Sequence record: MH494197.1
DNA length: 64,000 nucleotides
Reading direction: 5' to 3' (one strand)
Origin: Escherichia phage CMSTMSU
Within the stretch, counting starts at the first letter, position 1. Each line of letters begins with the position of its first letter. The position numbers were made by a program, and so were the translations under genes. A model generated the notes under the pieces. That model worked only from the letters and a program-made list of their open reading frames with translations. It was not told the DNA's origin and ran no database searches. Below are positions 1,725 to 36,930 of this stretch, one piece after another.

Positions 1725-2773
1725 TTACATCCACTTATCCGTTTGTGCTTTAATATAGAAAGGCTCGTCAACTATACTATCATGTATCAGTTGTAAACAA
1801 AATAATCTTCCAAATCTAGCACATGCTTCGTCAAAATCTTTAATGTGACGTATAGTACTTCCAACACGTACTGCCCCAAAATCTGGGAAAGAAACACTAA
1901 ATCCATATTCTAGTGCTTGTTCTATTGTTTGTAATCCATCCTTATCACGGTCAGGTACGATAACAATCTTTTTACCTTTTTCTTGTGCAGCTTTAAGTAC
2001 ATCTATTTGTACTGCTGACAATTTAAAGTTATTTGCAGAAACACCACCCATTAGTGCTGCATCCATTGGACCTTCACAAACTAATATAGTTTTAATTCGT
2101 TCATCTTGTAACAGATCATAATTATATAGAATATTAGTACTGACCTGATTAATAAAACGATAGGTACTTCCGGTCTTTAAGTTTGTGTCTAGCAGTATAT
2201 CCGATAATTTTACCGTTCATAACGTATGGTATGATAAATCGGTCATACATTTTATGTTCTTTAGCTGGACTCAATACAATTCTAAATCTAATAGATATGG
2301 ATTTCGCTCATTCACATGATTCAGAACACTAATAAATTCTTGTGGTATTTGCTCTTCTGGTAACGATGCCCATTCCCAGAATGTTTTTGAGTTCGGTGGT
2401 AATTCACGAACAGTTACACGTTGATATAGTTTAGATGCAGTAGTTTCTTGTTCTGCAAAGTCTCCACTATCAACCATTTCTTTAATGTAAAATTTAGCTA
2501 GTTCTATTTCCTTATCCTGTGCACCAAAGAAATGAGCAAAGACTCCATATCTTTGCTCATATATTTTCCAGTTGCCACCCAGTTTTTAGACTACAGTTAA
2601 AACAGTTATAAGAAACAGAACCATCTGCATTAAACATATGATTGCCGCGATTTTTAGTATCGGGGCGTGAATGACCACGGAACACACAAGCAGGACAATT
2701 GTGATGTGTCCACATACCAATTCGGTACTGGGTCATTCATGATTTGTGCCATGATGTTTTGTACAGCGTTCAT
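1725..2773 (-). CDS. DNA primase (zinc ribbon plus TOPRIM), several frame breaks
   Basis: Zinc ribbon HNCPACVF...YNCFNCS near the N-terminus in an alternate frame; TOPRIM motif KKIVIVPDRDKDG in ORF 1725-2066; SD and ATG at 2771-2773. Confidence 0.75.
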
Positions 2774-2802
2774 AATTTAATCCTTGTTATTTCTCACAAA
2801 TG

Positions 2803-2831
2803 ATTATAGCACAAACACTTGTTTTGTCTCA
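2803..2831 (-). promoter_or_regulatory. Early sigma70-like promoter for primase/helicase (TGAGAC, 17 nt, TGcTATAAT)
   Basis: Minus-sense TGAGAC (plus 2826-2831), 17-nt spacer, extended -10 TGCTATAAT (plus 2803-2808 = attata). Confidence 0.5.
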
Positions 2832-3185
2832 CCTGCGAATCAAAATTTTAGGAACTGACAGTAGTGGGTCATAGACTTTTCTTACTGCCGCATAGTCATA
2901 AGGAACTGGAACGATCTTAGGATGAATACAAACAACCAATCGCAACCACATGTAATTACCTTTAAAATTAAATGCTTGAATCCCATCTAACGCTTTAGGG
3001 AATCCATTTTCATCAATATCATTTTCGATATATTCTTTACCATCCAATTTAACAATAAACCATTTATAGTTTTCGTTATCAGTTGGTACGTTATTACACA
3101 AACATCCTTGTAATTGAATTCTACCAATAAATTTATCAAAGTACATTGCAATAGTACTAAGACCATCAACTAATCCGTACTGCAT
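2829..3185 (-). CDS. Hypothetical early protein (probably extends upstream after a frame break)
   Basis: ORF with phage-like composition in the early-gene block. Confidence 0.35.
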   Translation of the reverse strand: MQYGLVDGLSTIAMYFDKFIGRIQLQGCLCNNVPTDNENYKWFIVKLDGKEYIENDIDENGFPKALDGIQAFNFKGNYMWLRLVVCIHPKIVPVPYDYAAVRKVYDPLLSVPKILIRR

Positions 3186-3515
3186 TTGTGCAGGAAGGGA
3201 GATGTTGCCATTATATCAAATTCACCAATAACGCCACGAGCGATTGGTTCATGATAAAGCGTTTGATGGTAGTCCATGCTGGGTTTTATTAACAGATACT
3301 TCAATACTTGGCACAAACACAGGAGCAGCTTGGTCGGAAATGATCAATTCAGCAGAGGCTTCATAATCAAGACCAGTGTATAAGTACTGTGTAGGTTCAA
3401 TCAAGGAACCATCCATTGTTACTTTAGTAATACTCCATCTATATTTTGAACGGGACTAGTATCCTGAATTACACCAGCAGGAACAATACATCCATAATAT
3501 ACTTTTTACTATTAC

Positions 3516-3801
3516 CTAATGTTTGTCTTGCTTGTCCACTTTCTGATAGCCATGATGGTTTTGTTTATCCAGAACTACATCGAATAATTTAGTATTGTTT
3601 CTAGCATCAAAAATCATGAATGTTAGATATTCGTTATCTTTTAGTAATGTATATTTTCCATCAGCATTATGCACAGTGAATGATAAATTGTTATTTGCAC
3701 CTCTGTATATTGTAAGTTTCTCATTGCTGTATGGCATATTAAAATTGCCCAATGATACTTCTTGGTTATAAGGGTACATAAACACGCCGTGATGAGCCAT
3801 A
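3516..3801 (-). CDS. Hypothetical small protein
   Basis: Plausible start MAHHGVF at 3799-3801; the upstream part of listed ORF 3516-4034 is low complexity. Confidence 0.3.
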
Positions 3802-3857
3802 GTTTTTCCTTCCATAAATAATAGGTATAAATTTATACTAATATTTATGGAACTCAT

Positions 3858-4184
3858 ATGAATCAATATAATACTATTCCACCATTTATCACGGTAGTTC
3901 AGTGTGATGGTAAAACTTTCATTGGTATTATCAAGATAAAAAGTAAACAGTATACTACTCTTTACTGCTTTGATGATATGGATGAACCAATGCAAGATGA
4001 ATTGTTGGGTATAGCACATGATTGGTGGTGGCAAAGCAACAGGTCAATTCCAGTCTGTCTATTCTTCCAAGAAGAGATGGAGAAATTTGAACCTTACACA
4101 CAGAGATTCGATACCTGCGGTGAATTTCGTTTGTGGTCCAGTAGTTTCTTTATGATTTGCCACAAAACGCATCAAGCGTCGTAA
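3858..4184 (+). CDS. Hypothetical small protein on the opposite strand
   Basis: ORF preceded by ATAAATAA and TATAAAT late-promoter-like motifs at 3812-3835. Confidence 0.3.
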   Translation: MNQYNTIPPFITVVQCDGKTFIGIIKIKSKQYTTLYCFDDMDEPMQDELLGIAHDWWWQSNRSIPVCLFFQEEMEKFEPYTQRFDTCGEFRLWSSSFFMICHKTHQAS

Positions 4185-4882: not shown

Positions 4883-5131
4883 CTAACATTGTACACTTTG
4901 TTTGGTCTTTGACAACTCTTGACTTAGACCAAAGAATCTTTCCTCATGTCTTTCAACCATACTGATAATTTTTTCTACACGAACAGGATCGTGCACCTGA
5001 AAGGTTTTACCATCAAGTGTAATTTCAGTTATAGAACCCTGTCTAAGCAATGATAAAGATTTAGATTTATCTGCTTTTGGCACAGGTACATACCCTTCTG
5101 GTATTTTATTATATATACTTTTTCCATTCAT
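4883..5131 (-). CDS. Hypothetical protein
   Basis: 82-aa ORF. Confidence 0.35.
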   Translation of the reverse strand: MNGKSIYNKIPEGYVPVPKADKSKSLSLLRQGSITEITLDGKTFQVHDPVRVEKIISMVERHEERFFGLSQELSKTKQSVQC

Positions 5132-5134
5132 AAT

Positions 5135-5683
5135 CCAGCCTCACGTAGCATACTTTTTATTTCATCACATTCCTTTTTGTACTTTATAGTTTTAACCTCA
5201 AAGTAACTAGGATCAATGTATTTAAGTATATACTCGATTTCAGAGTTAGAGAGATTCTTGAAAAACTTATTAGTACTTTCTTTTGGTGCTAACCAGATAA
5301 TCCAAGGTGAAATCTTACCACTCTCAATCCATGCAATTGCACGGGCAGAACTAACATTGGAAAAAACTTATTCCACTCCAAGTTCAGATTCTGACCCCAT
5401 TCCACCATCGCAACAACACTACGGAAACCGCAGCATTGGGAGATTCAGAACGAATACAATCTAATATCCATTCATCCTTTGCTTTATAAGTACTCCATTC
5501 CATAATAGGACGGTTTCTTACAATTAGACTTTTTACAAAACCATCAATATCTAAAATATCACGGTTGTTCAAATAATAAATTGCAAAATCATAAAAATCA
5601 CTAAAGTACTTTGATTTTATAAAAGCCATTAATGGTTCAACACCCTTCTTGAAAGGGAAATGGTTTAACTCCATGAATTGCAT
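5135..5683 (-). CDS. Hypothetical protein (~180 aa, one frame break)
   Basis: ORF 5384-5683 continues in another frame to about 5135. Confidence 0.4.
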
Positions 5684-25479: not shown

Positions 25480-25659
25480 TTGTTTGCTTCTCCATGTGTT
25501 TTGAAAAAATGTCATCTCACAACCGCTGTAAGATGACTACATTGTATCACTACTTACGATTTTGTTCCAAAAACTTTTAAACAGGTTTAACAGGGAACGA
25601 AAACTTCTTCTTACTAAATTCAGATGTTGTTAGAGATGATAGCTCAAGAACATATGCTT

Positions 25660-26092
25660 TCAACTTAGAAACAGTTCTATTTCATAATCAGTTGCTACCT
25701 CAAGATCTATCGCCATCTTAATGTTATTCAACTCATTAATTGCTACGGTTCTTAATTCTTGGTGCTCAGATGATAGACGTTTGATCTTTTCATCAGTAGA
25801 TTCAACATAATCAGAAATTTTACTTCCATCATAGATTTTACCAACTACTTCATCTTCATCTCCATCATGCTCCAACTCAGAAACACTGTATCCATACGGT
25901 ACTAACAATGTTACATCATATGATGCTTGTGCAATATATCCATCGTCAGAGTACTGAACTTTTAAAGTATCTTGTCTGAATTCGCTTTGACAATCATACC
26001 AGTCAATACCCTCATCTGACAATAGATAAAGAACATTATCGCCATGTTTTTTCTACTGGGATATATTTTTGAAATTTTTATACGTTTTCATA
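25660..26092 (-). CDS. Acidic protein downstream of fibre gene; possible fibre chaperone
   Basis: Start overlaps the fibre stop (TAATATG). Confidence 0.3.
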
Positions 26093-27717
26093 TTAAGACT
26101 CCACTACTACGTTAGTCCATACACCATTTACTAGTTTTTGTGTATATCTCCAACTCAAACCTTCAACGTGTGTACCTGAACTACCATTTACTGAAATAAA
26201 CAACCCATCCAGTGTAGCACCTTCTGGTACATAGTTCCAAGAAGAATCAGGAACATTTCGCGTAGTTGTTCTTTTACTTAAACGAACATCTTGTACAGCA
26301 CCTAGTGTTAAAGTTACGTTACCGTTTGCATCAGCGTTGTTACCGTTAATAGATCTGACGATGTTTTTACTAGCAACAGTTGCTGTGTTTCCAGAAATAG
26401 ACAATGATGCACCAGTTACTGATGGAGCATAAAGTACACCAGAAGAGTTAATTGTAACTTCAGAACCACCATTACTTCTCAAACGTAATGTATTTGTTGA
26501 TGAACTGTGATAAATTGCTGCACGTTCAGTAGTTCCTGCCGCGTTACGGAAGTAAAGTACCAAAGATGTGTCGTCTGAACGAATTGTTGCACTGTTAGCA
26601 ATACTCAATGAACCAGACATTGTATCACCAGTTTTCAGTACATAACGGGTGTTTGCAACTTTTCACTCAACGCAACGTTGGACTCAGCAATGTTATATAA
26701 GTATGCCACATTGAAGTGTGGTACGTCAATATTACTAATTCCGTGGCTGTGTGCTTGACCACTACCAACAGTGTTCGTAGAGCCACTGAAACTATGCACG
26801 TGATCAGGTGCTTCGTTAATGTTATTAATTACAGTTGGGATTCCGTTGTCGTTACTGGATGTTAACGCATTAAGACCACTTCTGTCCATACCTTTAGTGC
26901 CTGACTATGACCATGACGACCAGCAGCACCAGTAGTTCCACTGAAACTAAATGAGTGCGGTGGAAGTTGAGCAATTGATATAGCAGTGCCACTAATTGAT
27001 GCACTACTTGCAATCACACTATCAGTTTTAGTTACGCCTGATGTGGTAATGCCTTTCAAGTATGCTTCTTGGTTAAGATTTGGAACTTGTTTTGTGATTG
27101 TACCATTTTCACCAGCCCATGTCCACCACATTCCATCAGCAAAACACCAACCATCAGAAGTTTTCCACGGAGAACCTTGTGAACCATTACGACCACTTTG
27201 ACCATTAGTTACACCAGACATCTGTTCACGAATACTAGCAACAGTTTGTCCAGAAGTCAATGAGTACTGGTAATTGCACGGGCTTCATTGAAGTATAAAG
27301 ACCTGTTGGGCCAGTACCGCTACTTGATGGAATAGGGAATACGATATTTAAATTCGTACCACTAATGCTCGCACTTGGAACAGCACTACTACTATATGTT
27401 ACTGTTTCAACTTTTAAATTCAGTTTACGGTTCACTTCATCGAGTGAAATACGGATTGGTTCAAGAATTGTATCAGTATCATATACTGCAATCCAACTTG
27501 TACCGTTGTGGTATTTTAACACCAACTCATTTCTATCAAATACCATCGCACCTTGCTCACCTGCTGGCAATGCCTGTACTGGTAAAATGACAGAAGATGA
27601 ATTAAAACGAATAGGTCTTGGATTAGTTGGTGTACCACCAAGCACTATTAGTTCTAAAGATCCATTAGCACCAGTACTAGTCATAGTATCCAGTGGGTTA
27701 TTAAAACTTATGCTCAT
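26093..27717 (-). CDS. Tail-fibre-like protein with HxH motifs (frame-disrupted)
   Basis: Ser/Thr/Gly/Asn-rich; HGHSQ, HVHSFSG, HSHGIS; AATAAATA upstream. Confidence 0.45.
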
Positions 27718-27758
27718 GTATAAATCCCTTTAATGATTAATATATACTATATTTATTA

Positions 27759-28067
27759 CTATAGCAAGTCGTTTTCCATATCGTCAAGAACAGAATCAAC
27801 GATGTTCGCTGCTATCTTCTTAGGCATCTTGAACCACTCGGTGTTAGGTTGCCTTACTGCGTTCATTTGTTTTAGTCTTTTGTGAATTTCTTTCTCTGCT
27901 AAACGTGCATCTTCAAAGTGTACTTCATGGTATACCACAAAATCTCTAAAAGGTGTAGCAGTTTGATATGTCCTTAAACGCTCTGTCATTTCAGATTTAC
28001 TGGTAAATCCTATCTTAACATAATCAGGCCATGCATCATTTACTATAACATAACATATCTGTGACAT
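27759..28067 (-). CDS. T5orf172 (GIY-YIG-like) domain protein
   Basis: CYVIVNDAWPDYVKIGFTSKSEMTERLRTY...TEWFKM matches the T5orf172 domain pattern. Confidence 0.6.
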   Translation of the reverse strand: MSQICYVIVNDAWPDYVKIGFTSKSEMTERLRTYQTATPFRDFVVYHEVHFEDARLAEKEIHKRLKQMNAVRQPNTEWFKMPKKIAANIVDSVLDDMENDLL

Positions 28068-28134
28068 AGAAAATATCTCCATCAGTAATATGAAGATATT
28101 TATTAATCAAGTAATTCGGAAATTTACCCCAGCA

Positions 28135-28466
28135 TCAATTAGGCGTTGGAATGGGTTTGTGGCTCGAATTCAGAAGGAGTTTTGAAATGTTCAGTACTGG
28201 AGCATCAGCATGTAACTTTGACATACGTTCTTTGTACTTATCTAAGTATTCTTCATATAACATATCTTCAGTGTTACTATTAAGTATGTCTTCGATAAAT
28301 GAATCAATACTATAGTCCAGTCTATCATCATTATAATACAAAGTTTCACTAGCTTCATCATAACCAACTAAAGTTCCGTATGGAACATTAATCTCAATTT
28401 TGAGTACTGACTCTTTAAGTACTCTTCTTTCTTAAAATGTATACAGTTAACATTGGTATCCTCCAT
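28135..28466 (-). CDS. Hypothetical small protein (frame break)
   Basis: ORF 28135-28341 plus upstream start with SD GGAGG. Confidence 0.3.
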
Positions 28467-28489
28467 AGTTTTATGTATTTAGAATTTTA

Positions 28490-28516
28490 GTCAAAGAAAA
28501 GGACTCGAAGAGTCCC
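28490..28516 (-). terminator. Intrinsic terminator after the capsid gene
   Basis: Minus-sense GGACTC-ttcg-GAGTCC then TTTTCTTT. Confidence 0.55.
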
Positions 28517-28559
28517 TATTGTTTTAATTTCTTGATTAAATCTTTTAAATCGATTACAA

Positions 28560-29732
28560 TTACATGAAAGTAACGTTTTTGATAGCGATTTTGCTGTAGT
28601 AGTCAGCAGCGTTACCAAGAGATGAAGTACTATCAGTCAATTGTACATAACCATAACGAGTGAGGAAGGTTGTGACCAATTCACCAGTGTTAGGGTCCAT
28701 TACAGTACCGGAAGCCATTAGTGGGATGTATGGGCAATAGAACACACCAGCATCAGTTTCAGCGTTACCTTTGTAACCAATTAGGATATCTTCAACATCA
28801 CTTGCATAGGTATCAACGAAGATACGCATGGTGCTGTTTAGAGTACCAACAAATTTAACGTTAGTTGGAGCTTCGAAAGTACCTTCAGTAGTACGTGCAA
28901 AACTAGAAGTAGTTGCAGACTGTAGAATGGTTAGAGCGGTTGGAGAAACAACAGCCCAGTTCGCAGCACCACGTTTGGTACGACGAGCAACTTCGTTCGC
29001 TTGACGGTTGATTAGGGTAGCTAGAGCAGCGTGCTCGTCACCAACGAAGGTCGCAACACCAGTAACTTTAGATTGGTCATAAGTTACAGCAGCAGCACCG
29101 TAGTGCACGTAGACGGCTTAGTAGCTCTTGGTCGATTTCAACGGTAACTTCTTGAGCGATTGCAGCCATTAGTTCAGCTTCAACGTCGATACCATGTTGG
29201 GATTGTGCATCTTGTGCAGATTCAACAGTCCAACGTGCAGATAGACGACGAGATTTCGCTTCAACAGTTTCACGTAGAATACGGATGTTAACGCGACGAC
29301 CCATAGTACCTTCTAGTTGGCTAGTAGGAGCAGCTTGTGGGTTGCTGTTGTCTGCGTTTAGGTCACCAGTATAAGACTTAGCGATTTTGTATGGAGAAAG
29401 CATTTCTTCACCAGCGATAACACCGGAGCGTTGTCAGCATATTGAACACGTAGGGTGTGGATCTGACCAACTGGGCCAGTCATTGGCTGAACACCGATGA
29501 TTTCGTTAGCGATTACGGTTGGCATAACACGACGCATAATTGGTAGAATCACTTTGTTTAGAGTAGCGATGTTACCAGCAGTGGTTGCACCAGAAGTAGC
29601 AGATTCGTTTAGCATTAGTTTACGATGGTTATCAAGTACGGTTTCCATTACGGACTTACGAGTACCTTGTAGACCTTCAACTAGTTTCTCTTTAACTGCT
29701 ACCCATTTGGATTCATTTAGTAGTTGTGACAT
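28560..29732 (-). CDS. Major capsid protein, gp23-like (three frame segments)
   Basis: ...IIGVQPMTGPVGQ..., ...RILRETVEAKSRRL..., ...YKGNAETDAGVFYCPYIPL... track T4 gp23. Confidence 0.9.
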
Positions 29733-29776
29733 TATTATCTCCTTAAAGATGTTATATTCGTTTTTCAGTATGATAT

Positions 29777-29784
29777 TATTTATA
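29777..29784 (-). promoter_or_regulatory. Late promoter TATAAATA for the capsid gene
   Basis: Minus-sense TTCTATAAATAATATCATACT. Confidence 0.6.
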
Positions 29785-29803
29785 GAACTGAAAAATTTGA
29801 TTA

Positions 29804-30931
29804 TTAAAATGCTTTAAAATGTTTATTTTTATTGATACCAGAAAGAACATCGAGTTCTTTTAGGAATGCCATATCGTCAGCGGTCATTTCTTCGCTTTCA
29901 ACAATAGCCTGACGGTTGCCAGTGATTACTTTACCTTCTGCAAGAGTTCTCTTAGCGGAAGACTGAACTGCTTGACGAGTGGTAGCAGATTCATTTACTT
30001 TAGTACCGTTAAGTACTGACTTATGGTACTTGCTGAAATCGTCTTTAAGCTTTTCTGTAGGAGAAGTAGCTAGAAGGGATTCCATAATTTGTTTCTGTTG
30101 TGTAGTTAGTGGCTTAACTAGTTCAGACATAATCGCATTACGAGCTTGTGAATCTTCCATAATACGTAGTTTGGTTTTAGCAGCTTTAACTTCACTTACA
30201 GTTTCATTTAGTTCTTTCTTAACTTGAGCAATTTCGTCTTCTTTAGACTTGATTGATTCAGTTAGGGAACGTAGTAGTGAATTCTCATTAAATTGTTTGA
30301 CATTAAACTCTTGAGCAAATGCTTCAAAGATTTTACGACCAAACATATTTTGTTTTGCTTCAACAAGATCTTCTTTCAAAGCGTATAGGTTTTTCTGAGT
30401 AGTTTCTGCAATATATTTAGCAGCACTTTCAGATGTACGTTTGATGAAGTTGTTACGTGCTTCAGCAATTTGACGGAGCCTTCAGCTAGTTTAACGCGAG
30501 TTTCAACTAGTTGACGTTTCTCGATGTGGAATTCTTTTAGCTCTTCTGCTAGGATACCGTTAGAGAAATTAACGAATTTATCCATGCATTCTTGAAGATG
30601 CTTACGTTCTTTACGCATTTGTTTAACTTCTTCAGCCAAAACAGAGTTAGAAAACGCAGAGAAATTACTTAGGGTTTTGCGGAGAGTTACACGATCTTCT
30701 ACAAGACGTTTTTCTCTTCATATACTGCACCCATTTCTTCAGCGATAACTTGAGTAACCATAGTATTTAGACCTTCGGTTAGCTCAGACAAATCTTGTTT
30801 GTAGCGGCCTTTCATTTCTTCACGCATTTCTGCGGCAAGTGTGTTTTTTCTTCATTCCATGCTTCCTGAATTAGCTGTTTTGCCTCATCAGAAAGAGATG
30901 ATTCTTTTAGAAGCTTTTCTAATTTAGACAT
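29804..30931 (-). CDS. Prohead scaffolding protein, gp22-like (frame-disrupted)
   Basis: Coiled-coil K/E-rich ~375 aa between protease and capsid genes. Confidence 0.5.
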
Positions 30932-31105
30932 TCGTTCTCTCCTTTAAGTACTGAAATATCTGTACTTCAACATACAAATATTTATATTTTTAAAATGTTA
31001 ACCTTTTAATTTCTTGAAAAAATCGTAAATTTCAGAATCTACATTATTTACTGTTTTAGATTCTGTGATTTTTTAGGACTATTACAAGGTGATCCGTACT
31101 ACTCA

Positions 31106-31615
31106 TCAGAGATTCAAAACCGCAGTAGGGTATGCCTCTGGAGCACTAGGTTGAGCAACAATATCAATTGTGATAATTTCAAAATCAGAAACTATTCCAT
31201 TGTAATCCACGTTACCGGAACCACGAGAACTTACACCAAGTTTCACACCAGCTTCTAGCATTTTACGAATATTAGTACCATGAGCAGTATCAAGTAGTTT
31301 GATTTCTGCCATGCCGTTAGCACCTTCCATCCAGACCTTAGTAATCATTGCTGCTACACGGTCAAGGTTAATTGTTAGTGTTTCAGGGTGGTCACATTCA
31401 ACTAGAATACTTTCACCTTTAGCCAAACGTTGAGCCATATTATTAACAGCTTTAGTAATTTCGGCTAAAGGGTAAATTCTCTCATTTAAATTTCTTTGAT
31501 CGGCTTGAATAGCAATACCACGAAGATAGCAATCACGCCCACCAAGTCCATTATCACGATGTTCCAAAACAACTTTAGAATCATTGAATGAAGACCATTC
31601 ACGAATCATACTCAT
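31106..31615 (-). CDS. Prohead protease, gp21-like
   Basis: ...ECDHPETL...LLDTAHG...LGVSSRGSGNVDYNG...IVAQPSAPEA parallels T4 gp21. Confidence 0.85.
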   Translation of the reverse strand: MSMIREWSSFNDSKVVLEHRDNGLGGRDCYLRGIAIQADQRNLNERIYPLAEITKAVNNMAQRLAKGESILVECDHPETLTINLDRVAAMITKVWMEGANGMAEIKLLDTAHGTNIRKMLEAGVKLGVSSRGSGNVDYNGIVSDFEIITIDIVAQPSAPEAYPTAVLNL

Positions 31616-34612: not shown

Positions 34613-36790
34613 TTAACTGTTTCTCTCACCTTGGGTGTTTTCAGAGATAGTTCTTAGATAATTATTTGTCTGTTGTACAGCAGATAGTGATTGTTCATTA
34701 ACATCGGCAAGCTTTTTGAGTATTTCTTTCATTTCATCAGAAATCGGTGCTGGTGGTCCAGTTCTCGATGTCACTGCACTACCATTATTTATCATCTTCT
34801 TAATTGCCTCTGTATCGTCAGGTTTTGGTGGAACTGGTGGTTCACGGTGCCCATGCAGTTTTATCAAAATCTTTACGAGATACAGTTATTTCTGGAGCAA
34901 CGTTATTGGTTTTCAATAACAGGACGAATACGTTCTACTCGGACGGTTGAATAAACTGTCAGCATAATCAGATGGTAGTGGTTTTGGTTCTTTGTAGTTA
35001 CGTGAGGTGTTCCATTTGTTGAACTTATCCCACATCCCTGCAAAATAATCACTAACACTATTTACACCGTTGTCAATGATGTTGTTTACGCTTTCTGCTG
35101 GGGTTTCAGTACTGTTATTGAGTTTTATATCATTATCAGAACCACCACCGAACCAACTTTTAACAGAATTCCATAGGTTACCGGTAAATCCATTAAGTTA
35201 TTCATAAAGGTATCAAATGCTTCTGACACTTTAGAGTAACCTGAACCGAATATATCTGCACCCAATCCATCCAACCAAGCTGTAAATTCAGCACCAATAC
35301 GATCAAGGTAAGCAATTGCATCTTTAGCAATAGGTACTAACCCAAATCCATCAAGAGCCAATTCCCCAATAAACTCCCATGCACCATCAGTTCTGTCTGC
35401 AATGTCTGAAAGATAATCCACAATTGAATTTTGTGTATTAGCATACATTGTATTAAATGGTTCAGTGAATTCTTTACTAATCCACATATTGAAGCGGTTA
35501 GTAAATTGAGTTAATTTATCAGCGGGATTATTTTTAGGTTCATTTACGGTTGCTTCCATATCCAATAGTTGTTGGTAGAAGGTTGCAGCAGTTGTGTTTC
35601 CTAATTGAATCTGGTTAAGCAAATCTTGCTTAATTAATTCTTTATTCTTTTAACGAATTCTAATTGTTGGCGACGAATTTCTTGTGAATCAGTTACACCA
35701 CTACGTACAAGATTTTCACCTAAATCAGCGAACTGGTTCAGTACTGGAGTGAGTAGGTCATCCGGTACACCACCAATAGACAATCTGTGTGATATCAAAC
35801 GGAGGAAATCTGCACCTGCATCACCCATTGCACCCGCAGCTTCGTTGAACGCCTTAGATGTTGCTACAGCAGCTTTACTGGATAGTCCAGAGTAGTTCTG
35901 CAATGCAATTTGCATAGAACGCGTATCGAGTGATTTATCTAGGTTTTGTGTTTTGTTTAGTAATGCATCAACGGATTCACCCATGCTTTTACTGAATTTA
36001 GTCATGCTCATGATGAATTGTTCAGTACTTTTAGCTTGTCCATACTACGAAGAGCTTCACGACCACCATATTGTTTTGGAACTTAATGTTTCTTGCAGTT
36101 AAATCAGTTAATGTTTTTGAGAAATACCATAAAGGCCAAGTTCATTTTGAGCTTGTTGAACAGTTCCTAATAATTTACCAAAGGTAGCAACACCATCACC
36201 ATATGCCCCATCCAACTGAGCTACTACAGAACTATGTGTTTGTAGAGCTTCACTGAATCATCCATACTCAACATAGATGCACCTGCACCTTTCAGTACTG
36301 AACCATAACCTTCAGCCAATGCAACACCAGCACTGTTAATTCTGGTATATACTTCCAATTGTGCATTAAGTGCGTTATATACAGCAAGACCAGCACCAGT
36401 AACGAGTTTAAATGCTGCTGCCGCTGCACCAATTGGACGGCATCATTGCTAATGAACCAGCAAATGATGATGCACTAACGCCTAATGAGTTTACTACAGT
36501 ACTTACGTTCGTACTGGAGTTCATCATTGTTTTGCTTACATTGGAAACTTCAGAAGATAGTGATTTGAACAATTTACCAAATGCTTTCCCATCATCGGCT
36601 TGTGCACTTCCACGATTACTGGAAGAACTGGAACTGGAACCATTCTTTTTACCATTTGAACCTGATTTTTCTTATCATTCTTTATATTTTCAGCTAATAA
36701 CTCACGGATAGCAGTCAAACTATCATTGTTATCTTTAGTTTGATTAACCAACTGCTGTAGTAGGTAATCACTTGTATTGACAGCCATAAC
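34613..36790 (-). CDS. Large helical protein(s), ~725 aa total, frame-disrupted; possibly two genes
   Basis: Continuous coding across ORFs 34613-34867, 35125-35622, 35634-36011 and upstream frames; Ser/Ala/Gly-rich segments. Confidence 0.35.
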
Positions 36791-36930
36791 ATTCCCTTTT
36801 AATAGATGTATTATAGAAATATTTATGAATCTATAACGAATAAAAAGACCCATCTATAACATTTGTCCAATTTGTCCCATTTTTGGTAATAAATACTACA
36901 GAGACATTTATTACATGGAGATTTAATAAA

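Follow-up and report, generated by a model that had tools for sequence, protein, structure and literature searches.

An apparently resident gene for a single-domain T5orf172 protein, flanked by capsid and tail-fibre genes in a jumbo-phage group

Introduction

The T5orf172 domain is treated as a subfamily of the GIY-YIG nucleases, and many of the proteins that carry it are homing endonucleases (PMC8263062, PMC10448857). One of them, Odn (Gp88) of phage ICP1, is a demonstrated nuclease that depends on a conserved glutamate (E180A; PMC8263062), and the original prediction for the locus described here was outdated in its view that proteins of this family lack an established function. Homing endonucleases of the T5orf172 type have been described with an architecture of zinc-finger repeats followed by a C-terminal T5orf172-like domain (PMC10448857). 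That jumbo phages of the present kind conserve T5orf172 proteins has already been remarked on, and an HJR-like role in recombination was suggested by Iyer et al. for the conserved T5orf172 proteins of the group 2.2 jumbo phages (PMC7824862).

In phage T4, segD sits between genes 23 and 24 (PMC2988022), a parallel that the original prediction had drawn correctly. The combination of a late promoter with a hairpin that hides the ribosome-binding site is known from I-TevI, I-TevII, I-TevIII and segB of T4 and from mobE of Aeh1, and the same control operates on T4 soc, e, 25 and 26, where translation is thereby confined to late transcripts (PMC2988022). The sequence ATAAATA has been reported as the late promoter of phages CBB and GAP32, and resembles the T4 late promoter TATAAATA (PMC5259590).

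Here, we describe a T5orf172 gene located between the genes for the major capsid protein and a tail fibre in Escherichia phage CMSTMSU (MH494197.1). It had been predicted to be part of a two-gene cassette that might be mobile. Positions are those of the window, the whole stretch of 64,000 nt that was analyzed.

Results

Genomic setting

Since positions 27000–29800 share 98.7% identity with Escherichia phage fEgEco12 and about 87–88% with 121Q and PBECO4, the window is assigned by sequence to an Asteriusvirus-type (121Q/PBECO4/fEgEco12-like) jumbo myovirus, a coliphage of the RaK2-like group. Every gene near the T5orf172 locus lies on the minus strand, and the features of the region are as follows.

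26093–27717, minus strand, tail-fibre gene (phrog_13229), split by indels into four ORFs in the record
27750–27756, minus strand, ATAAATA late-promoter-like box of the tail-fibre gene, directly past the T5orf172 stop codon
27758–27787, minus strand, sigma-70-like promoter match (TTGACG-18-TATAGT) at the 3′ end of the T5orf172 ORF, a consensus match only and not above shuffle expectation
27759–28067, minus strand, gene for a T5orf172/GIY-YIG-type single-domain protein, 102 aa
28071–28101, minus strand, predicted RNA hairpin
28097–28103, minus strand, ATAAATA late-promoter-like box of the T5orf172 gene
28107–28453, minus strand, neighbour gene (phrog_15724), coding for a 116-aa acidic protein in relatives and broken here by four 1-nt deletions
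28454–28498, no strand assigned, empty slot for a free-standing homing endonuclease gene of about 1.15 kb (121Q gp604 type)
28499–28517, minus strand, intrinsic terminator of the major capsid gene
28560–29732, minus strand, major capsid protein gene (Gp23 family), split by indels into three ORFs in the record

Relative to fEgEco12, the window shows many deletions of 1–3 nt, mostly of single bases in runs of A or T. Because the capsid gene is essential and could not be broken in a viable phage, the indels are attributed to errors of sequencing or assembly, and the frameshifts in the record look like sequencing errors rather than biology. The T5orf172 ORF is free of indels relative to fEgEco12 (none from 27279 to 28154). 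Both predicted flanks were recovered, namely the capsid terminator, which relatives also keep, and the late box ahead of the tail-fibre ATG at 27717.

Conservation of the T5orf172 gene

With tblastn and a limit of E ≤ 1e-12, 64 GenBank phage records were retrieved; 62 show 66–100% identity, and the hosts include Escherichia, Salmonella, Erwinia, Yersinia, Serratia, Cronobacter, Pectobacterium and Klebsiella aerogenes. The T5orf172 ORF is unbroken in all 64 records and in the metagenomic loci. Gene order was inspected in fEgEco12, 121Q, vB_Ec-M-J, PBECO4, BF, fHe-Yen9-03, Munch, PHA46, GAP32 and phAPEC6, and runs from the capsid gene through a variable slot, the small acidic neighbour gene, T5orf172, the tail fibre, a fibre-assembly gene and a small gene to DNA polymerase. 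The capsid gene lies upstream in 19/19 orthologous loci from IMG/VR, with the tail fibre downstream wherever the contig reaches that far, and even two more distant metagenomic lineages, represented by homologs of 56% and 48% identity, retain the capsid–fibre position. No presence/absence polymorphism was found among Asteriusvirus, Eneladusvirus, Mimasvirus, Munch-like phages and the IMG/VR ortholog loci, nor was an endonuclease-free allele of the site found among close relatives.

The gene is also very strongly constrained. Its dN/dS ratio is 0.015–0.10 (Nei–Gojobori, with synonymous sites saturated), and between genera its product retains 66–81% identity, compared with 45–54% for the tail fibre and 28–34% for the neighbour protein. 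The pairwise distances rank like those of the capsid protein, and none of the marks that selfishness would leave (a phylogeny at odds with the host genome, relaxed constraint, or decay after fixation) was seen. The gene was absent from Alcyoneusvirus (RaK2), PA5oct and one Vibrio jumbo phage; in RaK2 its site is taken by an unrelated 244-aa ORF (ORF097). Absence from Alcyoneusvirus and from the more distant phages points to one ancient gain or loss rather than ongoing mobility and, with a sister genus lacking it, the gene cannot be essential for this type of phage.

The proposal of a mobile cassette therefore fails on universal presence and strong purifying selection. The gene occupies the same position, between conserved flanks, in every examined member of four jumbo-phage lineages, and it was precisely universal presence under such selection that the original prediction had named as evidence against itself. 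From these comparisons, the gene is best described as a resident, vertically inherited component of the 121Q/BF/GAP32/Munch group of jumbo phages.

The mobile endonuclease of the same locus

By sequence comparison, the true mobile element of the locus is a different gene, a homing endonuclease of the 121Q gp604 type. An extra stretch of about 1.15 kb separates the capsid terminator from the neighbour gene in 121Q, vB_Ec-M-J, phAPEC6 and others, whereas the slot holds no insert in fEgEco12, PBECO4 or the window. The 121Q protein (gp604) is 365 aa long and contains treble-clef zinc-finger repeats (DUF4379, DUF723, CapR-like) followed by a C-terminal domain with a weak Pfam match to T5orf172/MUG113; Munch gp284 and RaK2 ORF095, its relatives in the same slot (57% and 35% identity, respectively), gave Pfam matches of the same kinds. 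In GAP32, a 77-aa C-terminal remnant of such an endonuclease remains (gp251), and the PA5oct slot carries a gene annotated as a 'Hef-like homing endonuclease'.

Sequence identity between 121Q, which has gp604, and PBECO4, which lacks it, is 99–100% on both sides of the locus but 87–94% over approximately 27756–28890 (window coordinates). In addition, over its final ~270 nt the capsid gene is a patchwork of synonymous variants whose patterns disagree among five phages. Such a patchwork, together with the drop in identity, would be expected as the trace of gene conversion associated with the endonuclease. That the 102-aa protein is a recent fragment of gp604 was rejected, as BLASTP found no similarity between it and 121Q gp604.

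The neighbour gene

The second small gene of the original prediction is real, with intact orthologs of 116 aa in fEgEco12 (g351) and 121Q (gp605), but the boundary it had been given, 28466, belongs to a false ATG that lies over the true Shine–Dalgarno sequence. In the window, deletions relative to fEgEco12 at 28155, 28179, 28397 and 28433 split the gene into ORFs of 68 aa (28135–28341) and 32 aa. The protein is strongly acidic (pI 4.4–5.5), has no Pfam or NCBIfam match, and its AF2 model reaches a pLDDT of only 65, a quality that does not permit interpretation or a fold search. It evolves several-fold faster than the T5orf172 protein. There is no late-promoter box upstream of its gene; in BF, fHe-Yen9-03 and GAP32 the gene is preceded by TGGTATAAT, an extended −10 element of the host sigma-70 type.

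The two genes can occur apart. RaK2, without T5orf172, carries a homolog of the neighbour (ORF096, 46–50% identity), and in the L014–L017 lineage T5orf172 stands directly behind the capsid terminator with the neighbour gene absent. Because each of these holds one gene of the pair, and because the promoter signals differ, the sequences describe two separable genes and not the single two-gene cassette that had been suggested.

A bare T5orf172 domain

The T5orf172 ORF, which carries CYVIVNDAWPDYVKIGFT...TEWF as predicted, is intact and can be read from either of two in-frame ATG codons, giving 107 aa from 28082 (27759–28082) or 102 aa from 28067. A Shine–Dalgarno sequence (GGAG, 28077–28080) lies 9 nt upstream of the second ATG and is overlapped by the first, and most orthologs begin at the second methionine, with 102 aa annotated for fEgEco12 g352 and 121Q gp606. 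For these reasons the true start is likely to be the second methionine, at 28067.

Membership of the T5orf172 family was borne out by profile searches. The protein matches Pfam T5orf172 (PF10544) with 50.6 bits against a cut-off of 20 (E 3e-13; profile positions 2–99 of 101), Pfam MUG113 with 48.8 bits against 22.3 (E 1.1e-12), and phrog_15085 (E 2.8e-56), while an NCBIfam search with three proteins gave zero matches. The structure model (pLDDT 90.8) predicts a GIY-YIG-type alpha/beta fold for the protein, and its top matches among solved structures are GIY-YIG/URI domains, those of SLX1 and UPF0213. In a profile of 66 homologs, the pattern 'Y-V-x-x-N ... K-I-G ... R-L-x-x-Y' aligns with the GIY-YIG motif of UvrC. 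Residues invariant in 25 orthologs (107-aa numbering) are Y11, K23, I24, G25, R35, Y39, E63, E65, E82, W83 and N93. The catalytic positions of GIY-YIG enzymes (the strand-1 Tyr, the helix-1 Arg and Tyr/His, the metal-binding Glu, and Asn) correspond to Y11, R35, Y39, E82 (E77 in the 102-aa numbering) and N93. The second Tyr of the GIY-YIG motif is replaced by Lys (K23) in the orthologs, and this Lys is nearly invariant across the 66 family members. Profile, fold and catalytic positions thus agree in placing the protein within the T5orf172/GIY-YIG family.

The 102-aa protein consists of one domain only, with no zinc finger, NUMOD or HTH. It is acidic (pI 5.4–6.3), which, in a protein without a recognisable DNA-binding module, is unusual for an autonomous nuclease, and its conserved C-terminal tail is acidic and leucine-rich (LDDxENDLL). 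The nearest non-orthologous relatives share at most 47% identity and do not lie beside capsid or fibre genes; 46 of 61 have an N-terminal extension of 72–105 aa, and the extensions in the examples read contain CxxC...CxxC zinc-ribbon-like motifs. Judged by these alignments, the jumbo-phage protein looks like a zinc-ribbon T5orf172 endonuclease cut down to its catalytic domain. No second T5orf172 gene was found within the 64-kb window.

Two further roles were considered. A defence system (PADLOC PDC-S57, PD-Lambda-1) was rejected, as only the domain of about 90 aa matches models of 212–496 positions. The gene belongs to the genome of a lytic phage. A role as a virion protein is unsupported, the ortholog gp222c being missing from the 62 virion proteins of phAPEC6, although this is weak negative evidence, as small proteins can escape mass spectrometry.

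Late-promoter box and hairpin

Each of the orthologous loci examined has an (A/C)TAAATA box at a distance of 21–30 nt upstream of the start codon of T5orf172, within a spacer that is otherwise not conserved. In the window, it lies 3 nt past the stop codon of the upstream gene and directly precedes a short C/U-rich arm complementary to the Shine–Dalgarno sequence. Folding predicts a hairpin with a 5′ arm that begins in or at the box and a 3′ arm that includes GGAG (28077–28080), with a minimum free energy of −10.3 kcal/mol (z −3.1). The same architecture recurs in 16/17 lineages with differing stem sequences: UCUUCAU/AUGGAGA in the window, UCUCCAU/AUGGAGA in 121Q, CUUCC/GGAGG in Munch, CCCC/GGGG in BF and GAP32, and, in four further lineages, CUCCC/GGGGG (L025), ACCC/GGGU (L029), ACUCACC/GGAGAGU (L035) and CUCC/GGAG (L018). 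The sole exception is L014, where T5orf172 comes immediately behind the capsid terminator; this fits, since read-through is not expected there.

Start of transcription 6 nt after the late box is the rule in T4, and the position of the late start used here is inferred from it. In predicted foldings, read-through RNA reaches −11 to −20 kcal/mol with the Shine–Dalgarno sequence paired, whereas RNA starting 6 nt past the box reaches 0 to −7 kcal/mol (−4 or weaker except in Asteriusvirus sequences) and loses the hairpin. Support from per-sequence folding with a shuffle test is moderate, with z scores of −0.6 to −3.6 and a combined p of about 0.002 for seven distinct lineages. RNAalifold, run on the 5′ UTRs as aligned by MAFFT, found no structure, the stems being out of register in that alignment. 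Of nine genes with a late box in the window, two have such a hairpin, and the capsid and fibre genes are not among them; the box of the tail-fibre gene is kept in 10/10 loci compared, with no hairpin after it on folding.

These signals suggest that RNA running on from the upstream, non-late gene would fold the hairpin and hide the ribosome-binding site, and that RNA begun at the late box would be without the 5′ arm and open to translation, limiting production of the protein to late infection. In fHe-Yen9-03, a −35 signal comparable to that of the sigma-70-like match at the ORF's 3′ end is annotated inside g255. The conserved control by late box and hairpin, and the contrast with the gp604-type endonuclease, appear to be previously undescribed; both are of known kinds.

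Discussion

We consider it reasonably probable, on the sequence evidence, that the T5orf172 gene codes for a domesticated, late-made, single-domain nuclease of low sequence specificity that is probably targeted by a partner. Descent would most likely have been from small homing endonucleases made of a zinc ribbon and a T5orf172 domain, with domestication following. We infer nuclease activity, a substrate and a partner for the protein: it would act as a late DNA endonuclease, possibly structure-specific or nicking, on intermediates of replication or recombination or on competing DNA. Low specificity or dependence on a partner is proposed because the protein has no DNA-binding domain, and the partner would probably provide the DNA targeting.

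A more specific form of this proposal is speculative, and we regard it as unlikely. The bare domain, retained across genera beside the tail-fibre gene, would be a late nuclease tethered to its partner, possibly through the LDDxENDLL tail, and would serve perhaps as a second, SLX1-like processor of branched DNA before packaging of the genome (about 350–380 kb), or as a weapon that cuts the DNA of co-infecting relatives. SLX1, as the closest solved fold, is in line with the candidate role in branched-DNA processing. Phage CBB, and so presumably its relatives, encodes a homolog of T4 EndoVII (PMC5259590), which weakens the idea that the T5orf172 protein is the only Holliday-junction resolvase of the phage and, together with the absence of T5orf172 from RaK2, suggests that any role in branched-DNA processing or attack would be an auxiliary one. 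If the weapon version were true, inheritance of the linked capsid–fibre region would be driven by it, and either version, if true, would be the first cellular role assigned to a stand-alone T5orf172 protein.

The protein might instead be a non-catalytic binder of DNA or protein, for example a late or tail-fibre regulator that uses the T5orf172 fold as a scaffold. T5orf172 was first named as a DNA-binding domain and many UniProt names retain that label, adjacency to the tail-fibre promoter is conserved, and the protein is acidic and very small; moreover, CapR of PLE, a domesticated relative of T5orf172 endonucleases, is a repressor (PMC10448857). However, CapR binds DNA by a zinc finger (PMC10448857), which is missing from the 102-aa protein, and a scaffold would not need the Tyr, Arg, Glu and Asn residues that are invariant across orthologs. 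We regard a binder as unlikely.

Still less probable is a two-gene module, in which the 116-aa acidic neighbour would be the targeting subunit of the nuclease or its inhibitor or immunity protein. The genes are adjacent in most genomes, a nuclease without a DNA-binding domain might call for such a companion, and a pI of 4.4–5.5 is often seen in nuclease inhibitors and DNA mimics. An acidic protein is, however, an unlikely DNA-binding subunit; RaK2 has the neighbour without T5orf172 and L014–L017 the reverse; and the neighbour evolves much faster and has no late box, but the sigma-70-type TGGTATAAT in BF, fHe-Yen9-03 and GAP32.

The T5orf172 gene could also be thought an active, free-standing homing endonuclease, a selfish insertion like segD that cuts cassette-free genomes, and some GenBank annotators have labelled it 'homing endonuclease'. 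Its domain family is rich in phage homing endonucleases, which cluster beside capsid genes (PMC10448857). The gene itself adjoins conserved essential genes and, from sequence and folding, its expression would be delayed by a late promoter and hairpin typical of T4 homing endonucleases. Distribution and selection have already largely refuted this reading, which we rate as very improbable: there is no presence/absence polymorphism in the compared phages or the IMG/VR ortholog loci, a target-recognition domain is absent from the 102 aa, and a fixed selfish endonuclease would be expected to decay rather than show a dN/dS of 0.015–0.10 and divergence congruent with that of the capsid. The polymorphic endonuclease of the locus is the gp604-type gene.

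A decaying, functionless remnant of a homing endonuclease that has lost its DNA-binding domain does exist at the locus (GAP32 gp251), but for the T5orf172 gene this explanation is scarcely credible and was rejected on the selection data, the ORF being intact everywhere at low dN/dS, with catalytic residues invariant and dedicated expression signals kept.

Phages and giant viruses commonly encode stand-alone T5orf172 proteins, and we know of none with a tested role. The present orthogroup gives a clear example of an endonuclease domain that seems to be domesticated and not selfish, with a mobile endonuclease slot a few hundred bases away as an internal control, and would be a convenient system for learning what phages gain by retaining such nucleases. 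For annotation, this gene should not be labelled 'homing endonuclease'; relatives already carry 'GIY-YIG nuclease family protein' or 'T5orf172 domain-containing protein'.

Comparison with known systems

Within the locus itself, gp604, gp284 and ORF095 share with the 102-aa protein their position and nuclease-domain superfamily, but they differ in being 304–408 aa long with repeated treble-clef zinc fingers, in being present or absent among near-identical phages, and in having decayed in GAP32. Further afield, ICP1 Gp53, Gp121, Gp130 and Odn/Gp88 and the proteins of T5-like phages have the same PF10544 domain with the core Y...KIG...R...E-W-F. Adjacency to a capsid gene, seen in 31% of surveyed T5orf172 neighbourhoods (PMC10448857), is also shared. 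About 87% of the surveyed proteins carry CapR-, DUF723- or related zinc fingers and are sporadic in distribution (PMC10448857), whereas the 102-aa protein is a bare domain, fixed in its clade and under strong purifying selection.

The T4 gene segD is likewise a GIY-YIG-superfamily gene downstream of the major capsid gene, but it runs antisense to the genes beside it, is uncharacterised and has had no promoter identified, and the T4 seg proteins carry DNA-binding domains at the C terminus and occur sporadically in T-even phages. The T5orf172 gene, in contrast, is read in the same direction as its neighbours, has a late box of its own, codes for a single domain and is fixed. Compared with the hairpin-controlled genes of T4, late transcripts would in the same way lose the 5′ arm of the hairpin that hides the Shine–Dalgarno sequence; the box is TATAAATA in T4 and ATAAATA here, where the control is predicted from sequence and folding. 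The URI domain of SLX1 (which needs SLX4), the N-terminal domain of UvrC, the UPF0213/YhbQ-type proteins and T4 endonuclease II are single-domain or partner-dependent GIY-YIG nucleases and, like the T5orf172 protein, are small and have no separate DNA-binding domain.

Endonuclease slot downstream of the capsid gene

The site directly after the capsid terminator shows a presence/absence polymorphism for a 365-aa free-standing homing endonuclease with zinc-finger and T5orf172-like parts, which is preceded by its own promoter (TGTATAAT). The slot is empty in the window and filled in the relatives listed here:

Window, 28454-28498: endonuclease slot, empty
Locus L002 of a relative, 2979-4076: endonuclease slot, occupied
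Locus L003 of a relative, 2984-4081: endonuclease slot, occupied
phAPEC6 (L013), 2479-3576: endonuclease slot, occupied

Munch and RaK2 have homologs of the 365-aa protein at this position (gp284 and ORF095, respectively). PA5oct carries a 'Hef-like' endonuclease there, and a metagenomic relative (L018) a 535-aa DUF7487 protein. In GAP32, the 77-aa ORF gp251 (L012 2675-2908) shares 38–40% identity with the C-terminal part of the gp604/gp284-type endonuclease, and is a C-terminal remnant of a decayed copy occupying the same slot.

Phage 121Q, which has the endonuclease, and PBECO4, which lacks it, are only 87–94% identical near the slot (window ~27756-28890) but 99–100% identical elsewhere. Towards its 3' end (CDS positions 906-1131; window ~28600-28830), the capsid gene shows synonymous variants arranged as a mosaic, and their patterns disagree among the five phages compared. 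The divergence and the mosaic suggest either gene conversion driven by the endonuclease or variation of its target site.

The T5orf172 gene and its neighbours

Between the slot and the T5orf172 gene lies a gene (window 28107-28453; 5011-5364 in the related locus L009) for an acidic protein of 116–143 aa that is conserved from Asteriusvirus to RaK2 and has no family match. In BF, Yen and GAP32 it is preceded by a sigma-70-type extended -10 (TGGTATAAT) in place of the late box, and it is possibly an early gene. A second ATAAATA box abutting a Shine-Dalgarno-pairing hairpin is present at 36787-36826 (minus strand), upstream of an ORF that begins at 36787, is 83 aa as read, and is possibly truncated by a frameshift.

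The T5orf172 protein ends in a conserved acidic, leucine-rich tail, S-V-L-D-D-x-E-N-D-L-L (window 27759-27800), that in the model runs past the final helix, and a partner protein may dock on this peptide. Only in L035, an IMG/VR relative with an 85% identical capsid, were the T5orf172 and tail-fibre genes seen not to be adjacent, being separated by an insertion of ~520 nt (3313-3834).

Sequence and annotation quality

Compared with fEgEco12, window 25500-31300 has about two dozen small deletions, mostly of single bases within A/T homopolymers, and the same pattern probably extends across the whole window. The genes for the capsid, tail fibre, fibre assembly and scaffold are interrupted by them, as are small genes, so they appear to be sequencing errors and not marks of pseudogenes. 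A 68-aa fragment has 100% identity to a protein of Escherichia phage CMSTMSU, whose UNVERIFIED GenBank record is the probable source of the window. Annotation of phAPEC6 omits the tail-fibre gene and gives a single 150-nt ORF in its place (L013 1053-1756), so the absence of the tail fibre from the published virion proteome may be an annotation artefact.

Further downstream, all loci carry an equivalent small gene (~99 aa) between the fibre-assembly and DNA polymerase genes, and in one metagenomic relative (L018 8167-8466) its product weakly matches Phage_DsbA. T4 DsbA is a dsDNA-binding protein associated with late transcription.
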